A DNA stretch of 64,000 nucleotides. Source: Escherichia coli (GTDB lineage Bacteria; Pseudomonadota; Gammaproteobacteria; Enterobacterales; Enterobacteriaceae). Positions within the stretch are counted from its first letter, which is position 1. Every line of letters starts with the position of its first letter. The stretch lies in the NCBI RefSeq assembly GCF_044324785.1, contig NZ_CP172127.1. One strand, 5' to 3'. A program made the translations under genes and the position numbers. Of the stretch, positions 9,068 through 33,783 are shown piece by piece. The notes under the pieces were generated by a model. The model was not told where the DNA came from. It did not search any database and saw only the letters and a list, made by a program, of their open reading frames with translations.

Positions 9068-9397
9068 ATGCTGATCTTCGAAGGTAAAGAGATAGAAACG
9101 GATACCGAAGGCTATCTCAAAGAAAGCAGCCAGTGGAGTGAGCCGCTGGCAGTGGTGATTGCAGAGAACGAAGGGATTTCGCTGTCGCCAGAACACTGGG
9201 AAGTGGTGCGTTTTGTGCGTGATTTCTATCTGGAATTCAATACTTCTCCGGCGATTCGTATGCTGGTAAAAGCGATGGCGAATAAATTTGGCGAAGAAAA
9301 AGGTAACAGCCGCTATTTATACCGACTGTTTCCGAAAGGTCCGGCTAAGCAAGCCACCAAAATTGCTGGCCTGCCAAAACCGGTAAAATGTATTTAA
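9068..9397 (+). CDS. tusE: Sulfurtransferase TusE (2-thiouridine tRNA modification)
   Basis: Track ORF 9011..9397 trimmed to ATG 9068 ([23 protein letters not shown]...), 109 aa, DsrC-like C-terminal ...PKPVKCI. Confidence 0.9.
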
Positions 9398-13210: not shown

Positions 13211-15265
13211 TTACGGTTTTCTCGCCACCGGCACATCCAGATTTTTCAGTATTTCGACAAATGGAGAGGGATTCTCTTTGTTAAACAGTGCCCATACCCG
13301 ATGGCGTGCCCGGGTCAGCGCCACGTACATTAACCGCCGTTCTTCAGCGTCCGGGAAATCCTCAACCGGTGGCAGTAGCGCCTCTTCCATAATCGACTCC
13401 CGCGCCGCAGCCGGAAAACCATCACTCCCCTCCTGCAAGCCAACGATGATGACGTAATCCGCCTGTTGCCCTTTGCTGGCATGAATGGTCATAAAGTCGA
13501 TTTGCAACTTCGGCCAGCGTGTTGCCGCTTTTTCCAGGCTGGCAGGCCTCATGTGATGGTAACGCGCCAGGATCAGAATGCGCTCTTCCGGTTTGGCATA
13601 ACCAGAGAGCTTATCCAGCAAAGCGTCAAGATGGCTCTCATCCAATAACGTGACGGCTTTTTTGTCTCCATTGGTTAAGCTGTTTAGCGGCTTTTTCAGC
13701 TGGCCTGGGTTCTGCTGAATAAACCGGTTTGCCACCTCACCGATACGACTGTTAAAACGGTAAGTCGTGTCTAAATCACAGCGATCGCCTTCTCCAAAGT
13801 TTTCATGGAAAGCGGTGGTGAGCGACATTTGCGCACCGCTGAAACGGTAAATCGCCTGCCAGTCATCACCAACAGCGAACAACGTCGTTTGACTGTTTTG
13901 CTTGCGTAATGCCGCTAACAACGCTGCGCGCTGCGGCGAGATATCCTGAAATTCATCAACCAGAATATGCTTCCACGGGCTGATAAAGCGACCTTTCTCC
14001 AGAATCACAATCGCCTGGTGAATAAGGCCCGAAAAATCGACAGCGTTTTCTGCCTTCAGCGCACCTTTCCAGGCTTTTAATAACGGGGCCATCAACTTGA
14101 TACGTTTACTGAACAGATCGCGAATCTCTTCGGGTGCACTGGCAATCATTTCTGCCTGTGCACCGCCGTGCATCCGCATCAGACTTACCCAGCGATCGAG
14201 GCGTGATGCAAGACGACGCTGTAATTTTTCATCATCCCAGAAATTACCTTCTGGCACTGACCACTGCATTTCTTCAGTCAGCCATTGCCGCCAGCCCTTC
14301 GCCTGCGCTTTCTTTTCGCTGCATTGCTTGCACCACTCAGCAATAAAAAGTTCATGACGGGCAGCGGTATCATTTTCCAGTTTGCTGACTATCGGAACTT
14401 TTTTGCTACCCTGCTGAATAATATGCAGCGCCAGCGCATGAAATGTGCGTGCGGTAATGTCTTCGGTATGTAGTCGTTCTCGAATACGCTCGTCCATCTC
14501 TTCAGCGGCTTTGCGACCAAACGCCAGCAATAAAATTTGCTCAGGGGACGCTTCACCACGCGCCAGCAACCAGCCTGCACGGGCCACCAGCACCGACGTT
14601 TTTCCGCTTCCTGCACCAGCCAGCACTAACAAAGAATGCTCGCCATTAACGACTGCCCGGGCCTGCGCCGGATTCAGCGGTGAAGACTCGACCTGGCGGA
14701 AAAAATCCGCATACTCGGTAAGCATGGCTTCGGTATACGCCTGATTATGCTGCAACCGAGCGCTTTCAATATCTTTCAACCAGGCCTGACATTTACGCCA
14801 CGCCTCACGGCAGTTATCGAATTCTTCCAGTCGGTTAACCGGCAACGGCAACGCCGACAAAGCCTGGCGGATTTGTTGCTGCACGCCAGAGGTTTGCTCA
14901 CGCGTCAGCCATTTATTTTCTCCGGTGCGCGTGGCAATTAAATCCAGTTGCTGGCGTAAAACACCAGACGCAATTTCGCTCATCTCGCTACTCCACCGCC
15001 GCCAGTGAGCATCAAGATGATGGTAAAAACGCTGCGTCTCGCCCCATTCGGTACCGTGCAGACGCACCACTTTTTCGCCCGGCAGTACAAATTCCAGCTC
15101 GCCCCATACCAGACCGCGCTTACAGTGAATAGCCAGTAATTGATTGAAAGGAATAAGGTATTCGTGGCGATCGCCGGAGACTTTAATCCCGGCATTGAGG
15201 ATCACCGCCCGATCGTAAGGGTGCTGTGCCAGACGTTTTCCAAGCGTTGTCGCTTTCAGTTCCAT
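13211..15265 (-). CDS. helD: DNA helicase IV
   Basis: Track ORF 13211..15358 trimmed to ATG 15265 (MELKATTLGKRLAQHPYDRAVILNAGIKV...), 684 aa, Walker A GAGSGKTS, UvrD-like. Confidence 0.93.
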   Translation of the reverse strand: MELKATTLGKRLAQHPYDRAVILNAGIKVSGDRHEYLIPFNQLLAIHCKRGLVWGELEFVLPGEKVVRLHGTEWGETQRFYHHLDAHWRRWSSEMSEIASGVLRQQLDLIATRTGENKWLTREQTSGVQQQIRQALSALPLPVNRLEEFDNCREAWRKCQAWLKDIESARLQHNQAYTEAMLTEYADFFRQVESSPLNPAQARAVVNGEHSLLVLAGAGSGKTSVLVARAGWLLARGEASPEQILLLAFGRKAAEEMDERIRERLHTEDITARTFHALALHIIQQGSKKVPIVSKLENDTAARHELFIAEWCKQCSEKKAQAKGWRQWLTEEMQWSVPEGNFWDDEKLQRRLASRLDRWVSLMRMHGGAQAEMIASAPEEIRDLFSKRIKLMAPLLKAWKGALKAENAVDFSGLIHQAIVILEKGRFISPWKHILVDEFQDISPQRAALLAALRKQNSQTTLFAVGDDWQAIYRFSGAQMSLTTAFHENFGEGDRCDLDTTYRFNSRIGEVANRFIQQNPGQLKKPLNSLTNGDKKAVTLLDESHLDALLDKLSGYAKPEERILILARYHHMRPASLEKAATRWPKLQIDFMTIHASKGQQADYVIIVGLQEGSDGFPAAARESIMEEALLPPVEDFPDAEERRLMYVALTRARHRVWALFNKENPSPFVEILKNLDVPVARKP

Positions 15266-15387
15266 GACTCTGTAGATCCACACGAAATGATTTCTTATCA
15301 GTGTAACCGTCAGAGAAAACGTGCTCCAGCCCAAAAAAACGTTACAATTGCCGCCCATTACTGAAAACCACAGTAAAGCGAGGTTTT

Positions 15388-15834
15388 ATGCGTACCGTTT
15401 TGAACATTCTGAACTTTGTGCTTGGCGGATTTGCCACCACTCTGGGCTGGCTGTTGGCGACTCTGGTCAGTATTGTGCTGATTTTTACCTTACCGCTGAC
15501 ACGATCCTGCTGGGAGATCACTAAACTGTCTCTGGTGCCTTATGGCAATGAAGCTATTCATGTCGATGAACTGAACCCGGCTGGCAAAAATGTGCTGCTA
15601 AATACTGGCGGTACGGTATTGAATATTTTCTGGCTGATTTTCTTTGGCTGGTGGTTATGCCTGATGCACATTGCAACGGGCATCGCACAATGTATTTCAA
15701 TCATTGGCATTCCTGTCGGCATTGCGAACTTTAAAATTGCCGCTATTGCACTATGGCCGGTTGGTCGTCGCGTGGTATCGGTAGAAACAGCGCAAGCTGC
15801 GCGTGAAGCCAATGCACGTCGTCGTTTTGAATAA
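15388..15834 (+). CDS. yccF: Inner-membrane protein YccF
   Basis: Track ORF 148 aa MRTVLNILNFVLGGFATTLGWLLATLVSIVL... Confidence 0.9.
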   Translation: MRTVLNILNFVLGGFATTLGWLLATLVSIVLIFTLPLTRSCWEITKLSLVPYGNEAIHVDELNPAGKNVLLNTGGTVLNIFWLIFFGWWLCLMHIATGIAQCISIIGIPVGIANFKIAAIALWPVGRRVVSVETAQAAREANARRRFE

Positions 15835-15852
15835 TCCACTAATATGGCCTTT

Positions 15853-18006
15853 ATGCTAAGTCCTTTGCTCAAACGCTATACCTGGAACAGCGCCTGGCTG
15901 TATTACGCGCGTATTTTTATTGCGCTTTGTGGAACCACAGCGTTTCCGTGGTGGCTGGGTGATGTAAAACTGACGATTCCGCTGACGCTGGGGATGGTGG
16001 CAGCGGCGCTGACCGATCTCGATGACCGACTGGCGGGACGTTTGCGTAACCTCATCATTACGCTGTTCTGCTTTTTTATCGCCTCGGCCTCAGTAGAATT
16101 GCTGTTTCCCTGGCCCTGGCTATTTGCGATTGGCCTAACGCTCTCTACCAGCGGCTTCATTTTGCTCGGCGGTCTGGGTCAACGCTATGCAACAATTGCC
16201 TTCGGTGCATTGCTGATCGCCATTTACACTATGTTGGGAACATCACTGTATGAGCACTGGTATCAGCAGCCGATGTATCTGCTGGCCGGTGCCGTCTGGT
16301 ACAACGTCCTGACACTTATTGGTCATCTGCTGTTCCCGGTCCGCCCGCTGCAGGACAACCTGGCGCGTTGCTATGAACAACTGGCGCGTTATCTTGAGCT
16401 CAAGTCGCGCATGTTTGATCCTGATATTGAAGATGAAAGCCAGGCACCGCTGTACGATTTGGCTCTCGCCAACGGTCAGCTGATGGCGACATTGAATCAG
16501 ACGAAACTCTCGCTGCTTACCCGCTTACGTGGCGATCGTGGTCAACGGGGAACGCGTCGCACGCTGCATTATTACTTTGTCGCACAGGATATTCACGAGC
16601 GTGCCAGCTCTTCTCATATTCAGTATCAAACATTGCGTGAACATTTTCGCCACAGCGACGTACTGTTCCGTTTTCAGCGGCTGATGTCGATGCAGGGCCA
16701 GGCGTGCCAGCAACTGTCACGCTGTATTTTGCTGCGCCAGCCTTATCAACATGATCAGCATTTTGAGCGCGCTTTTACGCATATTGATGCTGCGCTGGAG
16801 CGGATGCGCGATAACGGCGCGCCTGCCGATTTACTCAAAACACTGGGATTTTTGCTGAACAATTTACGCGCTATTGATGCCCAACTGGCAACAATTGAAT
16901 CAGAACAGGCCCAGGCACTGCCCCATAATAATGACGAAAATGAGCTCGCTGATGACAGCCCGCACGGATTAAGTGATATCTGGCTGCGTCTTAGCCGTCA
17001 CTTCACGCCGGAATCCGCCCTCTTCCGTCATGCGGTAAGAATGTCGCTGGTGTTGTGCTTCGGCTACGCCATCATTCAGATAACCGGAATGCATCACGGG
17101 TATTGGATCTTGCTGACAAGTTTGTTTGTCTGCCAGCCAAACTATAACGCCACGCGCCACCGCCTGAAGTTAAGGATTATTGGGACGCTGGTAGGTATCG
17201 CCATTGGCATTCCTGTGCTGTGGTTTGTGCCGTCACTGGAAGGGCAACTGGTGCTACTGGTTATTACCGGCGTGCTCTTTTTTGCCTTCCGTAACGTGCA
17301 ATACGCCCATGCAACGATGTTCATCACACTTTTGGTGCTACTTTGTTTTAACTTACTGGGTGAAGGTTTTGAAGTGGCGTTACCTCGCGTAATTGATACG
17401 CTGATTGGTTGTGCCATTGCGTGGGCGGCAGTGAGCTACATCTGGCCTGACTGGAAGTTTCGCAATCTGCCGCGCATGCTCGAACGCGCCACAGAGGCCA
17501 ACTGTCGGTATCTCGACGCCATACTGGAGCAATACCATCAGGGACGTGATAACCGTCTGGCGTATCGTATTGCCCGCCGCGATGCACACAACCGTGATGC
17601 TGAACTGGCGTCGGTGGTATCAAATATGTCCAGCGAGCCGAACGTTACCCCGCAAATTCGCGAGGCCGCGTTTCGGTTGCTGTGCCTTAACCATACGTTT
17701 ACCAGCTATATCTCAGCCCTCGGTGCTCACCGGGAGCAGTTAACTAATCCTGATATTCTGGCGTTTCTTGATGACGCAGTTTGCTATGTTGATGACGCGC
17801 TACATCATCAACCTGCTGATGAAGAACGCGTCAATCAGGCATTAGCTGGCCTGAAACAGCGGATGCAGCAACTTGAACCGCGGGCAGACAGCAAAGAACC
17901 TCTGGTCGTACAACAAGTCGGGTTATTGATTGCATTACTGCCAGAGATTGGTCGTCTGCAACGCCAGATTACTCAAGTTCCGCAGGAAACTCCTGTTTCG
18001 GCGTAA
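15853..18006 (+). CDS. yccS: Inner-membrane protein YccS (aromatic acid exporter-like, FUSC family)
   Basis: Track ORF 15844..18006 trimmed to ATG 15853 (MLSPLLKRYTWNSAWLYYARIF...), 717 aa. Confidence 0.9.
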   Translation: MLSPLLKRYTWNSAWLYYARIFIALCGTTAFPWWLGDVKLTIPLTLGMVAAALTDLDDRLAGRLRNLIITLFCFFIASASVELLFPWPWLFAIGLTLSTSGFILLGGLGQRYATIAFGALLIAIYTMLGTSLYEHWYQQPMYLLAGAVWYNVLTLIGHLLFPVRPLQDNLARCYEQLARYLELKSRMFDPDIEDESQAPLYDLALANGQLMATLNQTKLSLLTRLRGDRGQRGTRRTLHYYFVAQDIHERASSSHIQYQTLREHFRHSDVLFRFQRLMSMQGQACQQLSRCILLRQPYQHDQHFERAFTHIDAALERMRDNGAPADLLKTLGFLLNNLRAIDAQLATIESEQAQALPHNNDENELADDSPHGLSDIWLRLSRHFTPESALFRHAVRMSLVLCFGYAIIQITGMHHGYWILLTSLFVCQPNYNATRHRLKLRIIGTLVGIAIGIPVLWFVPSLEGQLVLLVITGVLFFAFRNVQYAHATMFITLLVLLCFNLLGEGFEVALPRVIDTLIGCAIAWAAVSYIWPDWKFRNLPRMLERATEANCRYLDAILEQYHQGRDNRLAYRIARRDAHNRDAELASVVSNMSSEPNVTPQIREAAFRLLCLNHTFTSYISALGAHREQLTNPDILAFLDDAVCYVDDALHHQPADEERVNQALAGLKQRMQQLEPRADSKEPLVVQQVGLLIALLPEIGRLQRQITQVPQETPVSA

Positions 18007-18598
18007 GAGAGTCAGCCCATTCTGCAAGCTCCTGGCGGCGTGCCACCGGGAGCGCAGCTTCATGAATGCCGATAATGGCCCCTTCAAGCATAAACAGAAT
18101 CTTTTCTGTCACCAGACTGTTTTGCTGCCGCAGTCGCAACCAACACATTTTTGCCCCAAGTATACGTAACGCCCGTACATCCTTAATCCCCACCTCCCCG
18201 AGAATCGCTTCCAGATGAAAAGACATATTGGGCAAATCTTTCAGTCTTTCCCGGGTATTGCGCGTGCTTTTCTCTTTCAGCGCTGCATCGAGAGAATATT
18301 TCGACAGACGCACCAGCTTCAGTTGATTTCGCCATAGACTTTCATCAACCCGATAGTAATTGAGGGTAACGGATCGGCCACACTTTTTATATGTCAGCCA
18401 GACAGGCGGATGTTTTACACAGTACTGTGCACTTTGCTCACAAGCCCGAAGATACAACTCACCATCAGAAACCATCGCAAACACCGTGTCGTCAACGGTC
18501 AGGCTGTAACTACCAAACAATGATCGGTATTCAATTGTGCCCAACGTTGCCAGGTATTCTTGTGATTTATAGATCCGCTTATAGGAGAGGCTTTTCAT
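17969..18598 (-). CDS. sxy: Competence regulator Sxy/TfoX
   Basis: Track ORF 209 aa MKSLSYKRIYKSQEYLATLGTIEYRSLFGSYSLTVDD...; 3' end overlaps yccS 3' end. Confidence 0.92.
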   Translation of the reverse strand: MKSLSYKRIYKSQEYLATLGTIEYRSLFGSYSLTVDDTVFAMVSDGELYLRACEQSAQYCVKHPPVWLTYKKCGRSVTLNYYRVDESLWRNQLKLVRLSKYSLDAALKEKSTRNTRERLKDLPNMSFHLEAILGEVGIKDVRALRILGAKMCWLRLRQQNSLVTEKILFMLEGAIIGIHEAALPVARRQELAEWADSLTPKQEFPAELE

Positions 18599-18774
18599 AA
18601 AATTCCTTTTAAAATCATAACATAAAAGAATGATTCACATTAACGGATCCGTTAACTACGAAAATAGGCAACTTATTCTTAAGGGGCAAGATTAATTTAT
18701 GTTTTCCCGTCACCAACGACAAAATTTGCGAGGCTCTTTCCGAAAATAGGGTTGATCTTTGTTGTCACTGGATG

Positions 18775-18794
18775 TACTGTACATCCATACAGTA
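18775..18794 (+). promoter_or_regulatory. LexA (SOS) box in the sulA promoter
   Basis: TACTGTACATCCATACAGTA, a perfect CTGT-N8-ACAG palindrome about 20 bp upstream of the sulA start. Confidence 0.9.
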
Positions 18795-18816
18795 ACTCAC
18801 AGGGGCTGGATTGATT

Positions 18817-19326
18817 ATGTACACTTCAGGCTATGCACATCGTTCTTCGTCGTTCTCATCCGCAGCAAGTAAAATTGCGCGTGTCTCTACGGAAAACACT
18901 ACAGCCGGGCTTATCAGTGAAGTTGTCTATCGCGAAGATCAGCCCATGATGACGCAACTTCTACTGTTGCCATTGTTACAGCAACTCGGTCAGCAATCGC
19001 GCTGGCAACTCTGGTTAACACCGCAACAAAAACTGAGTCGCGAATGGGTTCAGGCATCTGGGCTACCCTTAACGAAAGTAATGCAGATTAGCCAGCTCTC
19101 CCCTTGCCACACCGTGGAGTCAATGGTTCGCGCTTTACGCACGGGCAATTACAGCGTGGTGATCGGTTGGTTGGCAGATGATTTGACTGAAGAAGAGCAT
19201 GCTGAACTTGTTGATGCGGCAAATGAAGGTAACGCTATGGGGTTTATTATGCGTCCGGTAAGTGCATCCTCTCACGCCACGAGACAACTTTCCGGGCTAA
19301 AAATTCACTCTAATTTGTATCATTAA
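18817..19326 (+). CDS. sulA: SOS cell-division inhibitor SulA
   Basis: Track ORF 18811..19326 (TTG-extended) trimmed to ATG 18817 ([25 protein letters not shown]...), 169 aa. Confidence 0.94.
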
Positions 19327-19514
19327 GTAAATTTAGGATTAATCCTGGAACTTTTTTTGTCGCCCAGCCAATGCTTTCAGTCGTGACTAATTTTCCTTGC
19401 GGAGGCTTGTCTGAAGCGGTTTCCGCGATTTTCTTCTGTAAATTGTCGCTGACAAAAAAGATTAAACGTACCTTATACAAGACTTTTTTTTCATATGCCT
19501 GACGGAGTTCACAC

Positions 19515-33244: not shown

Positions 33245-33783
33245 ACTGCCTGTTCGAGGCTGAAGCTGTCCGCATTAACCTGCGGTTTCAGCCTGTCGTT
33301 CATGATTTTAATGGCGTCGCCCAACTGCATCGTGCGACCCGCAATAACAACGCAGGGTTGGGCCAGCAGGCATAGTGCGGCATTTTCGCCAGATTCAATG
33401 ACCAGCAAATTGACCTGCTCGTGAGTATCGCTCAACCAAACGCAGGCCGCATCGCCCGGCATGGGCATCCACATTTCACCATGAGATACAAAATGCCAGC
33501 TTTTCGGCATTTGCGGTTTGAGATAACGAATTGCTACCAGTGCATTAAGCACCAGTTCGGCTTTTTGTTCTTTAGATAAATTAAAATCGCGGCATTTTTC
33601 TTCAAATGAGAAATAGAGCGCTGCATCATCAACACAAAAAACGGAGGGATTAAAGGCATCTGGTGTGAGCATTTTACGAGCAAAACGCGAGCGAAATAAC
33701 ATACCATTGGCTAAATCGAGCATCATTCGATCGTGCTCTTCATCATAATACCAGCGCCAGTTATCGTCAGGTTTAATTCGCAT
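33241..33783 (-). CDS. zapC: Cell-division protein ZapC
   Basis: Track ORF 180 aa [30 protein letters not shown]... Confidence 0.92.

Follow-up and report, generated by a model that had tools for sequence, protein, structure and literature searches.

The yccS and sxy genes of Escherichia coli overlap tail-to-tail by 38 nt, and this overlap looks like a passive product of stop-codon drift in dispensable C-terminal tails rather than a selected device. Beside it, at positions 18028..18053 of the window (the whole 64,000-nt stretch of E. coli DNA that was analysed), lies a GC-rich hairpin embedded in sxy codons. Invariant synonymous sites suggest that this hairpin is the one selected element near the overlap, and it is probably the site where the yccFS mRNA ends in a Rho-dependent manner. 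The whole account, in which the overlap arose by neutral drift, the two transcripts are mutually antisense, the yccFS transcript has a Rho-type end at the hairpin and the effect on sxy is weak, is given a probability of roughly 0.6. The overlap is not new, as it is annotated in RefSeq E. coli and has already been catalogued; the codon-embedded hairpin beside it is the only element at yccS/sxy that is possibly new.

Both yccS and sxy are real protein-coding genes. The plus strand carries yccF (15388..15834), the first gene of the yccF-yccS operon (named as such in PMC4161252) and the source of the plus-strand transcript, followed by yccS (15844..18006, with its TAA at 18004-18006), which encodes a FUSC-like putative transporter of 720 aa with Pfam matches to FUSC-like (E 6e-115) and FUSC_2. 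The minus strand carries sxy (tfoX, formerly yccR; 17969..18598, with its TAA read from 17971 to 17969), which encodes a CRP-S coactivator of 209 aa containing the Pfam domains TfoX_N and TfoX_C (E 1e-25 and 3e-27). The earlier note had claimed a 38-nt overlap of the two coding regions at 17969..18006, and this is borne out by the open reading frame list and by RefSeq, whose yccS and sxy coordinates for the identical strain N3 equal those of the list. The overlap lies in phase (123:132) and covers yccS residues 709-720 plus the stop codon and sxy residues 198-209 plus the stop codon, such that the yccS TAA falls within sxy codons 198-199 and the sxy TAA within yccS codons 709-710. An overlap of 38 nt is likewise found in MG1655 and in a 92%-identical E. 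coli. Annotation artefact was ruled out as its source, since the stop codons are unambiguous and the annotations agree. Orthologues of the pair are syntenic in 30 loci, the region is found in 5425/5426 complete E. coli genomes and 5364 of those 5425 carry a junction of 99% identity or more. Between the window and MG1655 there are about 14 differing sites in 1201 nt, and the estimated chance of finding no difference within 121 nt is about 0.23; for this reason the near-uniform junction within E. coli was not counted as extra conservation.

At the 30 syntenic Enterobacterales loci, the two genes are separated by as much as 44 nt or overlap by as much as 47 nt. The lengths found (negative values denote a spacer) are -44 in Chimaeribacter, -2, 4 (Yokenella, ESL0689), 11, 14 in Salmonella, 20 in Leclercia, 23, 26 in Tatumella, 32, 35, 38, 41, 44 and 47 nt. 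An 81-nt overlap on metagenome contig L030 was set aside, as the Sxy C-terminus there looks frameshifted. The last Pfam match of YccS ends at residue 685, and the tail beyond LLPEIxRLQxQI differs among genera; TfoX_C ends at Sxy residue 194, and the tail beyond ELxxW varies in both sequence and length. Within Escherichia, the mean pairwise divergence of the overlap is 0.140 and that of its flanks 0.122 and 0.167. Neutral drift is suggested because the overlap sits in hypervariable tails outside the Pfam domains, varies in length and diverges to the same extent as its flanks. The genes overlap or abut within 2 nt at 29/30 loci, an arrangement that could also reflect selection for tight convergence.

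As the earlier note held, full-length mRNAs of the two genes are mutually antisense at their 3′ ends; the geometry forces at least 38 nt of complementarity, and published data support it (PMC4161252; PMC12288877; PMC7373196). The sxy and yccFS operons are described as converging in the Fig. 1 legend of Conway 2014 (PMC4161252), and sxy-yccS appears in Table 1 of ExcludonFinder 2025 as one of 165 convergent excludons, observed in half or more of 58 RNA-seq sets (PMC12288877). In Table S1c of Huang 2020 (PMC7373196), the ratio of antisense to sense reads is 0.22-0.30 for sxy, 0.32-0.58 for yccS and 0.03-0.09 for yccF. The same work reports, at gene level, 9-54 RPM of p19-captured dsRNA for sxy and 79-124 RPM for yccS. 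Among the duplexes listed in its Table S3, those mapped to the window fall inside yccS and outside 17969-18006: an RNase III duplex captured by p19 at 17420..17442, about 530 nt past the sxy stop, and a second p19-captured duplex at 16528..16550, about 1.4 kb past it. From the position of the former, antisense RNA therefore reaches well beyond the CDS overlap. The transcripts of these two neighbours do overlap. The premise, also taken from the earlier note, that sxy expression is tightly limited is supported by PMC3330819. A regulatory effect of the overlap on sxy is possible, and nothing found argues for an added layer of control.

A stronger reading of the same data would be that transcription of yccFS and that of sxy are mutually repressive, with polymerases colliding and RNase III cleaving the duplex of the 3′ ends, as a selected layer holding sxy expression down. 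Such control would fit the antisense reads and the p19-captured dsRNA found on both genes (PMC7373196), the place of the pair within the ExcludonFinder core set (PMC12288877) and the retention of convergent abutment from Escherichia to Tatumella and Chimaeribacter; a precedent has been proven in E. coli for mscL-arfA, which also has a 3′ CDS overlap, and the natural inducing condition for sxy is not known. Excludon listing is nearly automatic, however, for two expressed genes whose CDSs overlap. All three such pairs in the window are on the list (PMC12288877), and 276/370 (75%) convergent E. coli operons overlap transcriptionally anyway. Neither the length nor the sequence of the overlap is conserved, and in Chimaeribacter the genes lie 44 nt apart, with a hairpin in the space between them. 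In the published counts for the rnc-14 and rnc-38 mutants (PMC7373196), sxy and yccS sense reads show no specific rise and drop together with those of their neighbours, and the duplexes listed there lie 0.5 and 1.4 kb from the overlap. Given the weak expression of both genes, polymerases should seldom collide. Selected mutual repression is thus regarded as unlikely.

The junction was also searched for signals that could end either transcript. A terminator and promoter scan of 15000-19500 gave nothing near the junction on either strand, with total matches at shuffle level, and Rfam at a permissive E-value returned only a chance match to snoZ168 (E = 0.41). The 18028-18053 hairpin does not have the form of an intrinsic terminator, a GC-rich hairpin with a U tract, as it is followed by GCAGCUUCAUGA on the plus strand and by UUGCAGAAUGGG on the minus strand. 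Because there is neither intergenic space nor an intrinsic terminator, each mRNA must end inside the other gene. Fold z-scores of the 201-nt junction RNAs are -2.75 on the plus strand, driven by the hairpin, and -1.29 on the minus strand, which is not notable. On the sxy-sense strand, no conserved hairpin was found 3′ of the sxy stop; hairpins in this region differ in position and sequence among loci and have ordinary energies, and they were dropped as a conserved end signal for that reason. The supplement text of Adams 2021 holds no entry for sxy, yccS or yccF.

The hairpin of the plus (yccS-sense) strand, GCTCCTGGCGGCGTGCCACCGGGAGC, has no U tract and is a candidate 3′ stem-loop of the yccFS mRNA by its predicted folds and its synonymous constraint. 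It begins 21 nt past the yccS stop, is encoded by sxy codons 182-191 (A-LPVARRQE-L) and is present once in the window. Over 21 loci its dG spans -14.5 to -25, with -17.2 in E. coli, and its stem starts 12-21 nt past the yccS stop among loci. The share of paired cells is 92.7% at the hairpin and never above 54% in slid controls, and no more than 0.13% of synonymous recoding trials yield a structure as stable as the observed one. Among Escherichia loci, no other measured segment diverges so little (0.042), and a 600-nt sliding scan reaches its minimum at the hairpin. The stem codons CTC (Leu183), CCG (Pro184) and GAG (Glu190) are unchanged in 17/17 loci and CGC in 16/17, compared with codon identities of 0.15-0.50 at the other invariant Leu columns and 0.38 at Pro123. 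Neither CTC nor GAG is a preferred codon in E. coli. Fully invariant codons cluster within codons 179-190 (hypergeometric P = 0.007). Covariation is thin, with double changes in only 2/11 pairs and five pairs that never vary, and it is mainly the unvarying synonymous sites of 17 related loci that make the case for a selected hairpin.

Such invariance could arise if the hairpin were a by-product of the conserved Sxy motif ALPxxRRxEL and of shared ancestry, with no function of its own. Conserved residues are encoded by both arms, most stem pairs never vary, the loci are related and the shuffle control is only marginal (5 to 48 of 500 shuffles). Against this stand the fixation and clustering of codons that include unpreferred ones, the rarity of equally stable recoded sequences and the genera in which motif and structure part company. 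Yokenella and Chimaeribacter keep LP..R.EL and lack the hairpin, with recoding fractions of 0.78 and 0.16, respectively, and Yokenella uses CTG, CCT and GAA at the motif. The protein motif therefore does not force the structure, and a functionless by-product is the least probable of the readings weighed here. It is also quite improbable that the hairpin acts on the sxy mRNA, through decay or ribosome transit, or as a palindromic protein-binding site in DNA (GCTCCYGG-N10-CCGGGAGC), instead of on the yccFS RNA. Either strand may be the acting one, because the hairpin loses little stability on the sxy-sense strand (reverse-complement dG -13.6 to -25.9); recoding fractions are low there too (0.0003-0.007), and the outer half-sites are invariant with fixed spacing. 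A hairpin within the translated sxy CDS would, however, be unwound by ribosomes. U.G wobbles fall on the yccS-sense strand, usually the more stable one, and strands differing by more than about 1.5 kcal/mol favour it, with the exception of locus L018, where the sxy-sense strand is stronger by 1.5 kcal/mol. Changes in the inner stem keep the pairs (GC to AU, and AU alternating with GC), which argues for base pairing rather than protein contacts, and the spacing from the yccS stop together with the C-rich tract downstream suits the 3′ end of a plus-strand transcript.

Under the preferred reading, a Rho-dependent yccFS end at the hairpin, the pair would work as follows. With yccS and sxy packed without a spacer, each transcript would run into the other gene before ending, and this mutual run-in would give rise to the antisense RNA and dsRNA of the published data. 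In the yccS sense, the hairpin is followed by a rut-like tract (18107..18246, plus strand), a C-rich, G-poor stretch of the yccS-sense RNA that is antisense to the middle of sxy and is a candidate rut by composition only (C 0.31-0.40, G 0.14-0.17). Rho would terminate transcription downstream, exonucleases would trim the yccFS RNA back to the stem, and the stable mRNA would then be antisense to approximately the last 85 nt of sxy. The sxy-sense RNA, without a comparable conserved end signal, seems to extend far into yccS. Counting against such an end, antisense read density on sxy is about half the sense density on yccS, which means that a large share of transcription reads past the hairpin. 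The output of sxy is probably affected little, if at all, relative to the known controls at the 5′ end of sxy. A more ambitious version, in which the hairpin and the rut-like tract form a selected coupling device whereby Rho activity or yccS translation sets the antisense cover of sxy, gating Sxy in Enterobacteriaceae and helping to explain why laboratory induction is not seen, is highly improbable.

The overlap as first stated matters little, since all E. coli annotations show it and publications already describe the convergent transcription. The pair serves better as an example: an overlap of CDSs may be retained in different genera even though its length and sequence are free to drift, the “excludon” label can follow almost automatically from overlapping CDSs, and a selected element may sit beside an overlap and not within it. 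Should the yccFS mRNA prove to end at the hairpin, the hairpin would neatly illustrate how an RNA end signal can be written into the synonymous sites of a convergent gene. It would also provide a handle on whether yccFS read-through influences Sxy, a regulator without known natural induction in E. coli.

Compared with known convergent gene pairs, the yccS/sxy overlap is statistically unremarkable. Convergent pairs overlap in 3/9 cases in the window (tusE/yccX by 4 nt, ycbX/zapC by 4 nt and yccS/sxy by 38 nt), and 58-75 convergent CDS overlaps have been counted across the E. coli genome, with stop-codon mutation as their accepted origin (Lillo & Krakauer 2007, PMC2174442; Huvet & Stumpf 2014, PMC4161906). 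Like the pairs in those surveys, yccS and sxy are two real genes with their stops within each other, overlapping in poorly conserved C-terminal tails by a length that shifts between species, and any termination signals are forced into the coding sequence of the partner. They share the phase (123:132) that is commonest among convergent overlaps of at least 5 nt (49%). There is no essential difference, and the 38 nt exceeds the modal 4-nt type (TTAA and similar), of which tusE/yccX and ycbX/zapC are examples.

Among convergent excludons and operons, sxy-yccS is itself a member of both published sets (PMC4161252; PMC12288877) and shares with the others complementary 3′ transcript ends and the lack of a strong terminator between the genes, whereas its published rnc-mutant counts carry no sign of RNase III-dependent control. 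The mscL-arfA pair is likewise convergent, with an overlap in the 3′ UTR and 3′ CDS; its two genes are conserved as neighbours in Gammaproteobacteria, as are sxy and yccS, and ExcludonFinder lists both pairs. Antisense RNA has been demonstrated to affect transcript stability and RNase III processing in mscL-arfA (Morra 2023, PMC10070815), whereas the likeness of sxy-yccS is one of arrangement. The closest parallel for the proposed yccFS end is found in those Rho-dependent 3′ ends that a stem-loop lacking a U tract protects, with a rut directly downstream (Dar & Sorek 2018, PMC6061677). The yccFS transcript likewise has a stable stem-loop soon after its stop codon, no uridine run and, judged by composition only, a C-rich, G-poor tract thereafter. 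It differs from those ends in that its stem-loop is made wholly of the codons of the convergent gene and appears to be kept by constraint on their synonymous sites.

The 38-nt tail-to-tail overlap of yccS and sxy described in the earlier note is confirmed by the ORF list, the sequence and RefSeq annotation. The yccS gene, which encodes a FUSC-like putative transporter, occupies 15844-18006 on the plus strand and ends in TAA at 18004-18006. The sxy gene (also named tfoX), which encodes the CRP-S coactivator, occupies 17969-18598 on the minus strand, where the TTA at 17969-17971 is TAA on the opposite strand; the shared stretch is 17969-18006. The same 38 nt are annotated in strain N3, MG1655 and a 92%-identical E. 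coli. Strain N3 matches the window at 100% identity over 17500-18700, and the region is present in 5425 of 5426 complete E. coli genomes. Both products have strong Pfam matches, and an annotation artefact as the source of the overlap was rejected because both stop codons are unambiguous. The yccS start is now placed by RefSeq at 15844 (720 aa) vs 717 aa (1020953-1023106) in a U00096.2 table (PMC7373196), which leaves the 3' overlap unaffected.

Among convergent pairs the overlap is not unusual. Three of the nine convergent gene pairs in the window overlap, the other two being minimal-type 4-nt overlaps in RefSeq annotation (tusE/yccX at 9394-9397 and ycbX/zapC at 33254-33257). Published counts of convergent CDS overlaps in E. 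coli range from 58 to 75, and such overlaps were concluded to originate by stop-codon mutation (PMC2174442, PMC4161906). The yccS/sxy phase is (123:132), with codon positions 1-1, 2-3 and 3-2 paired, and 49% of convergent overlaps of at least 5 nt are in this phase (PMC4161906).

The junction was compared across 30 related loci sharing the synteny helD-yccF-yccS, convergent sxy, then sulA-ompA-matP. The overlap is 38 nt in E. coli, the cryptic clades and E. fergusonii, 41 nt in E. albertii, 11, 23, 32 or 47 nt in Citrobacter, 14 nt in Salmonella, 20 nt in Leclercia, 35 nt in Intestinirhabdus, 44 nt in an Enterobacter MAG and Lelliottia, 26 nt in Tatumella, and 4 nt in Yokenella and Enterobacteriaceae bacterium ESL0689. 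One metagenome locus has a 2-nt gap (-2 nt), and among the relatives Chimaeribacter alone has a true spacer (44 nt). An 81-nt overlap in a short metagenome contig was set aside as frameshift-like. The overlap sits past the last Pfam-matched residue of both proteins (Sxy 194 of 209, YccS 685 of 720), in tails whose length and sequence differ among genera. Mean pairwise divergence within Escherichia is 0.140 in the overlap, 0.122 in the yccS flank and 0.167 in the sxy flank, and dual coding brings no visible extra constraint. Because the overlap is variable, lies in hypervariable tails and diverges as fast as its flanks, we conclude that it is probably a by-product, free to drift, of the abutment of two genes whose tails are dispensable. 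Two database oddities were seen alongside. An assembly of Alkalicoccobacillus porphyridii contains a 276-nt contig (NZ_VLXZ01000190.1, coverage about 1) that matches E. coli sxy at 99% identity and is almost certainly E. coli contamination. Sxy-like proteins of 210 aa (JGI) and 245 aa (ENA) carry an extra match to SulA (PF03846) or amino-acid permease (PF13520) and probably result from chimeric or frameshifted gene calling on short contigs.

Beside the overlap lies a GC-rich hairpin, GCTCCTGGCGGCGTGCCACCGGGAGC, at 18028-18053 on the plus (yccS-sense) strand (dG -17.2 kcal/mol). It starts 21 nt past the yccS stop (12-21 nt across the clade from Escherichia to Lelliottia and Leclercia), lacks a U tract on both strands and falls on sxy codons 182-191, where Sxy has the conserved motif ALPxxRRxEL. 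Leu183 (CTC), Pro184 (CCG) and Glu190 (GAG) use the same codon in 17 of 17 loci, among which Sxy identity falls as low as 58%, and Arg188 is CGC in 16 of 17, the lone CGT facing a paired Ala-to-Thr (ACG) change. Across these 17 loci, pairwise codon identity elsewhere is 0.15-0.50 for other invariant Leu columns and 0.38 for Pro123. Eight codons are fully invariant, and four of them lie in the stretch 179-190 (hypergeometric P = 0.007). Stem cells are paired in 92.7% of cases vs at most 54% in slid-partner controls, with double changes at two pairs. When synonymous codons were resampled by local codon usage, the observed stability was matched in at most 0.13% of trials (yccS-sense) and 0.03-0.7% (sxy-sense). 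In Yokenella and Chimaeribacter the amino-acid motif is retained and the hairpin is absent (recoding scores 0.78 and 0.16). Hairpin divergence (0.042) is the lowest among segments compared in Escherichia loci and the minimum of a sliding 600-nt scan. Covariation is thin, and the hairpin is almost equally stable on the sxy-sense strand. Synonymous sites, pairing, recoding and local conservation all indicate that the structure itself is under selection. No published description of the 18028-18053 hairpin was found; this codon-embedded structure is a modest new lead next to a known overlap. At the other end of sxy (18557-18583, minus strand), Tyr6 TAT, Ile9 ATC, Tyr10 TAT and Glu14 GAA are also synonymously invariant in 17 of 17 loci, which could reflect the 5' mRNA stem-loop predicted by Sinha & Redfield (PMC3330819) or a translation-initiation constraint.

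Mutual sxy/yccS antisense RNA is real and already published, given the antisense reads and captured dsRNA on both genes. The sxy and yccFS (yccF-yccS) operons converge (Conway et al. 2014, Fig. 1 legend, PMC4161252). ExcludonFinder (2025, PMC12288877) lists sxy-yccS, as well as tusE/yccX and ycbX/zapC, among 165 convergent excludons (neighbouring genes with overlapping transcripts) detected in half or more of 58 RNA-seq sets from MG1655; the label follows almost by construction for any pair with overlapping CDSs. Wild-type sense and antisense reads are 32.7 and 9.7 RPM for sxy (listed as yccR), 63.0 and 20.9 RPM for yccS, and 17.0 and 0.5 RPM for yccF (Huang et al. 2020, Table S1c, PMC7373196). 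Double-stranded RNA captured with the p19 protein gives 9-54 RPM for sxy and 79-124 RPM for yccS (Huang et al. 2020, PMC7373196). Two RNase III duplexes listed within yccS map to 17420-17442 and 16528-16550, outside the overlap and 0.5 and 1.4 kb past the sxy stop, and antisense RNA therefore reaches 0.5-1.4 kb beyond that stop; sxy read-through and internal antisense promoters are candidate sources.

The earlier note's suggestion that sxy could be limited by convergent transcription or antisense pairing is plausible in kind. Proteolysis of Sxy by Lon has been described. The known or predicted controls of sxy lie at its 5' end (an upstream CRP site and a predicted stem-loop in the 115-nt leader), and the gene has no known natural inducing condition (PMC3330819). 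In mscL-arfA, which has a 3' CDS overlap as in sxy-yccS, antisense control is demonstrated in E. coli (PMC10070815). Against a selected role of the overlap itself stand its differing length and sequence among relatives, the weak expression of both genes, and the rule that convergent operons overlap transcriptionally, with complementary 3' ends in 276 of 370 and a mean overlap of 286 nt (Conway et al. 2014, PMC4161252). So does the absence of a specific effect in rnc (RNase III) mutants: in rnc-14 and rnc-38, sxy and yccS sense reads drop in parallel with neighbouring genes, with no rise (PMC7373196 data). An ordinary, drifting overlap is preferred, and any effect on sxy would likely be small.

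A scan found no intrinsic-terminator-like site near the junction on either strand. On the sxy-sense strand there is no conserved hairpin within 150 nt past the sxy stop, nor any C-rich tract over about 500 nt, which fits the antisense reads and duplexes deep in yccS. On the plus strand, a C-rich, G-poor tract (18107-18246; C 0.31-0.40, G 0.14-0.17) lies 3' of the hairpin. We propose that yccFS transcription would continue beyond the yccS stop and be ended by Rho inside sxy, that exonucleases would then shorten the RNA as far as the embedded stem, and that stable yccFS mRNA would thus be antisense to roughly the final 85 nt of sxy; sxy transcripts would extend further into yccS. Antisense density on sxy is about half of yccS sense density, so read-through past the hairpin is substantial. 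The Chimaeribacter coloradensis spacer holds a strong hairpin with an 11-bp GC stem (GGGTAGCCGGC-CGGGT-GCCGGCTACCC, dG -23), 4 nt past the sxy stop and 14 nt past the yccS stop and followed by CTTT on the yccS-sense strand, which may be a shared terminator. In Rho-dependent E. coli transcripts, steady-state 3' ends consist of a stable stem without U residues followed directly by a rut region (Dar and Sorek, PMC6061677), and the hairpin and C-rich tract in the window resemble this architecture.
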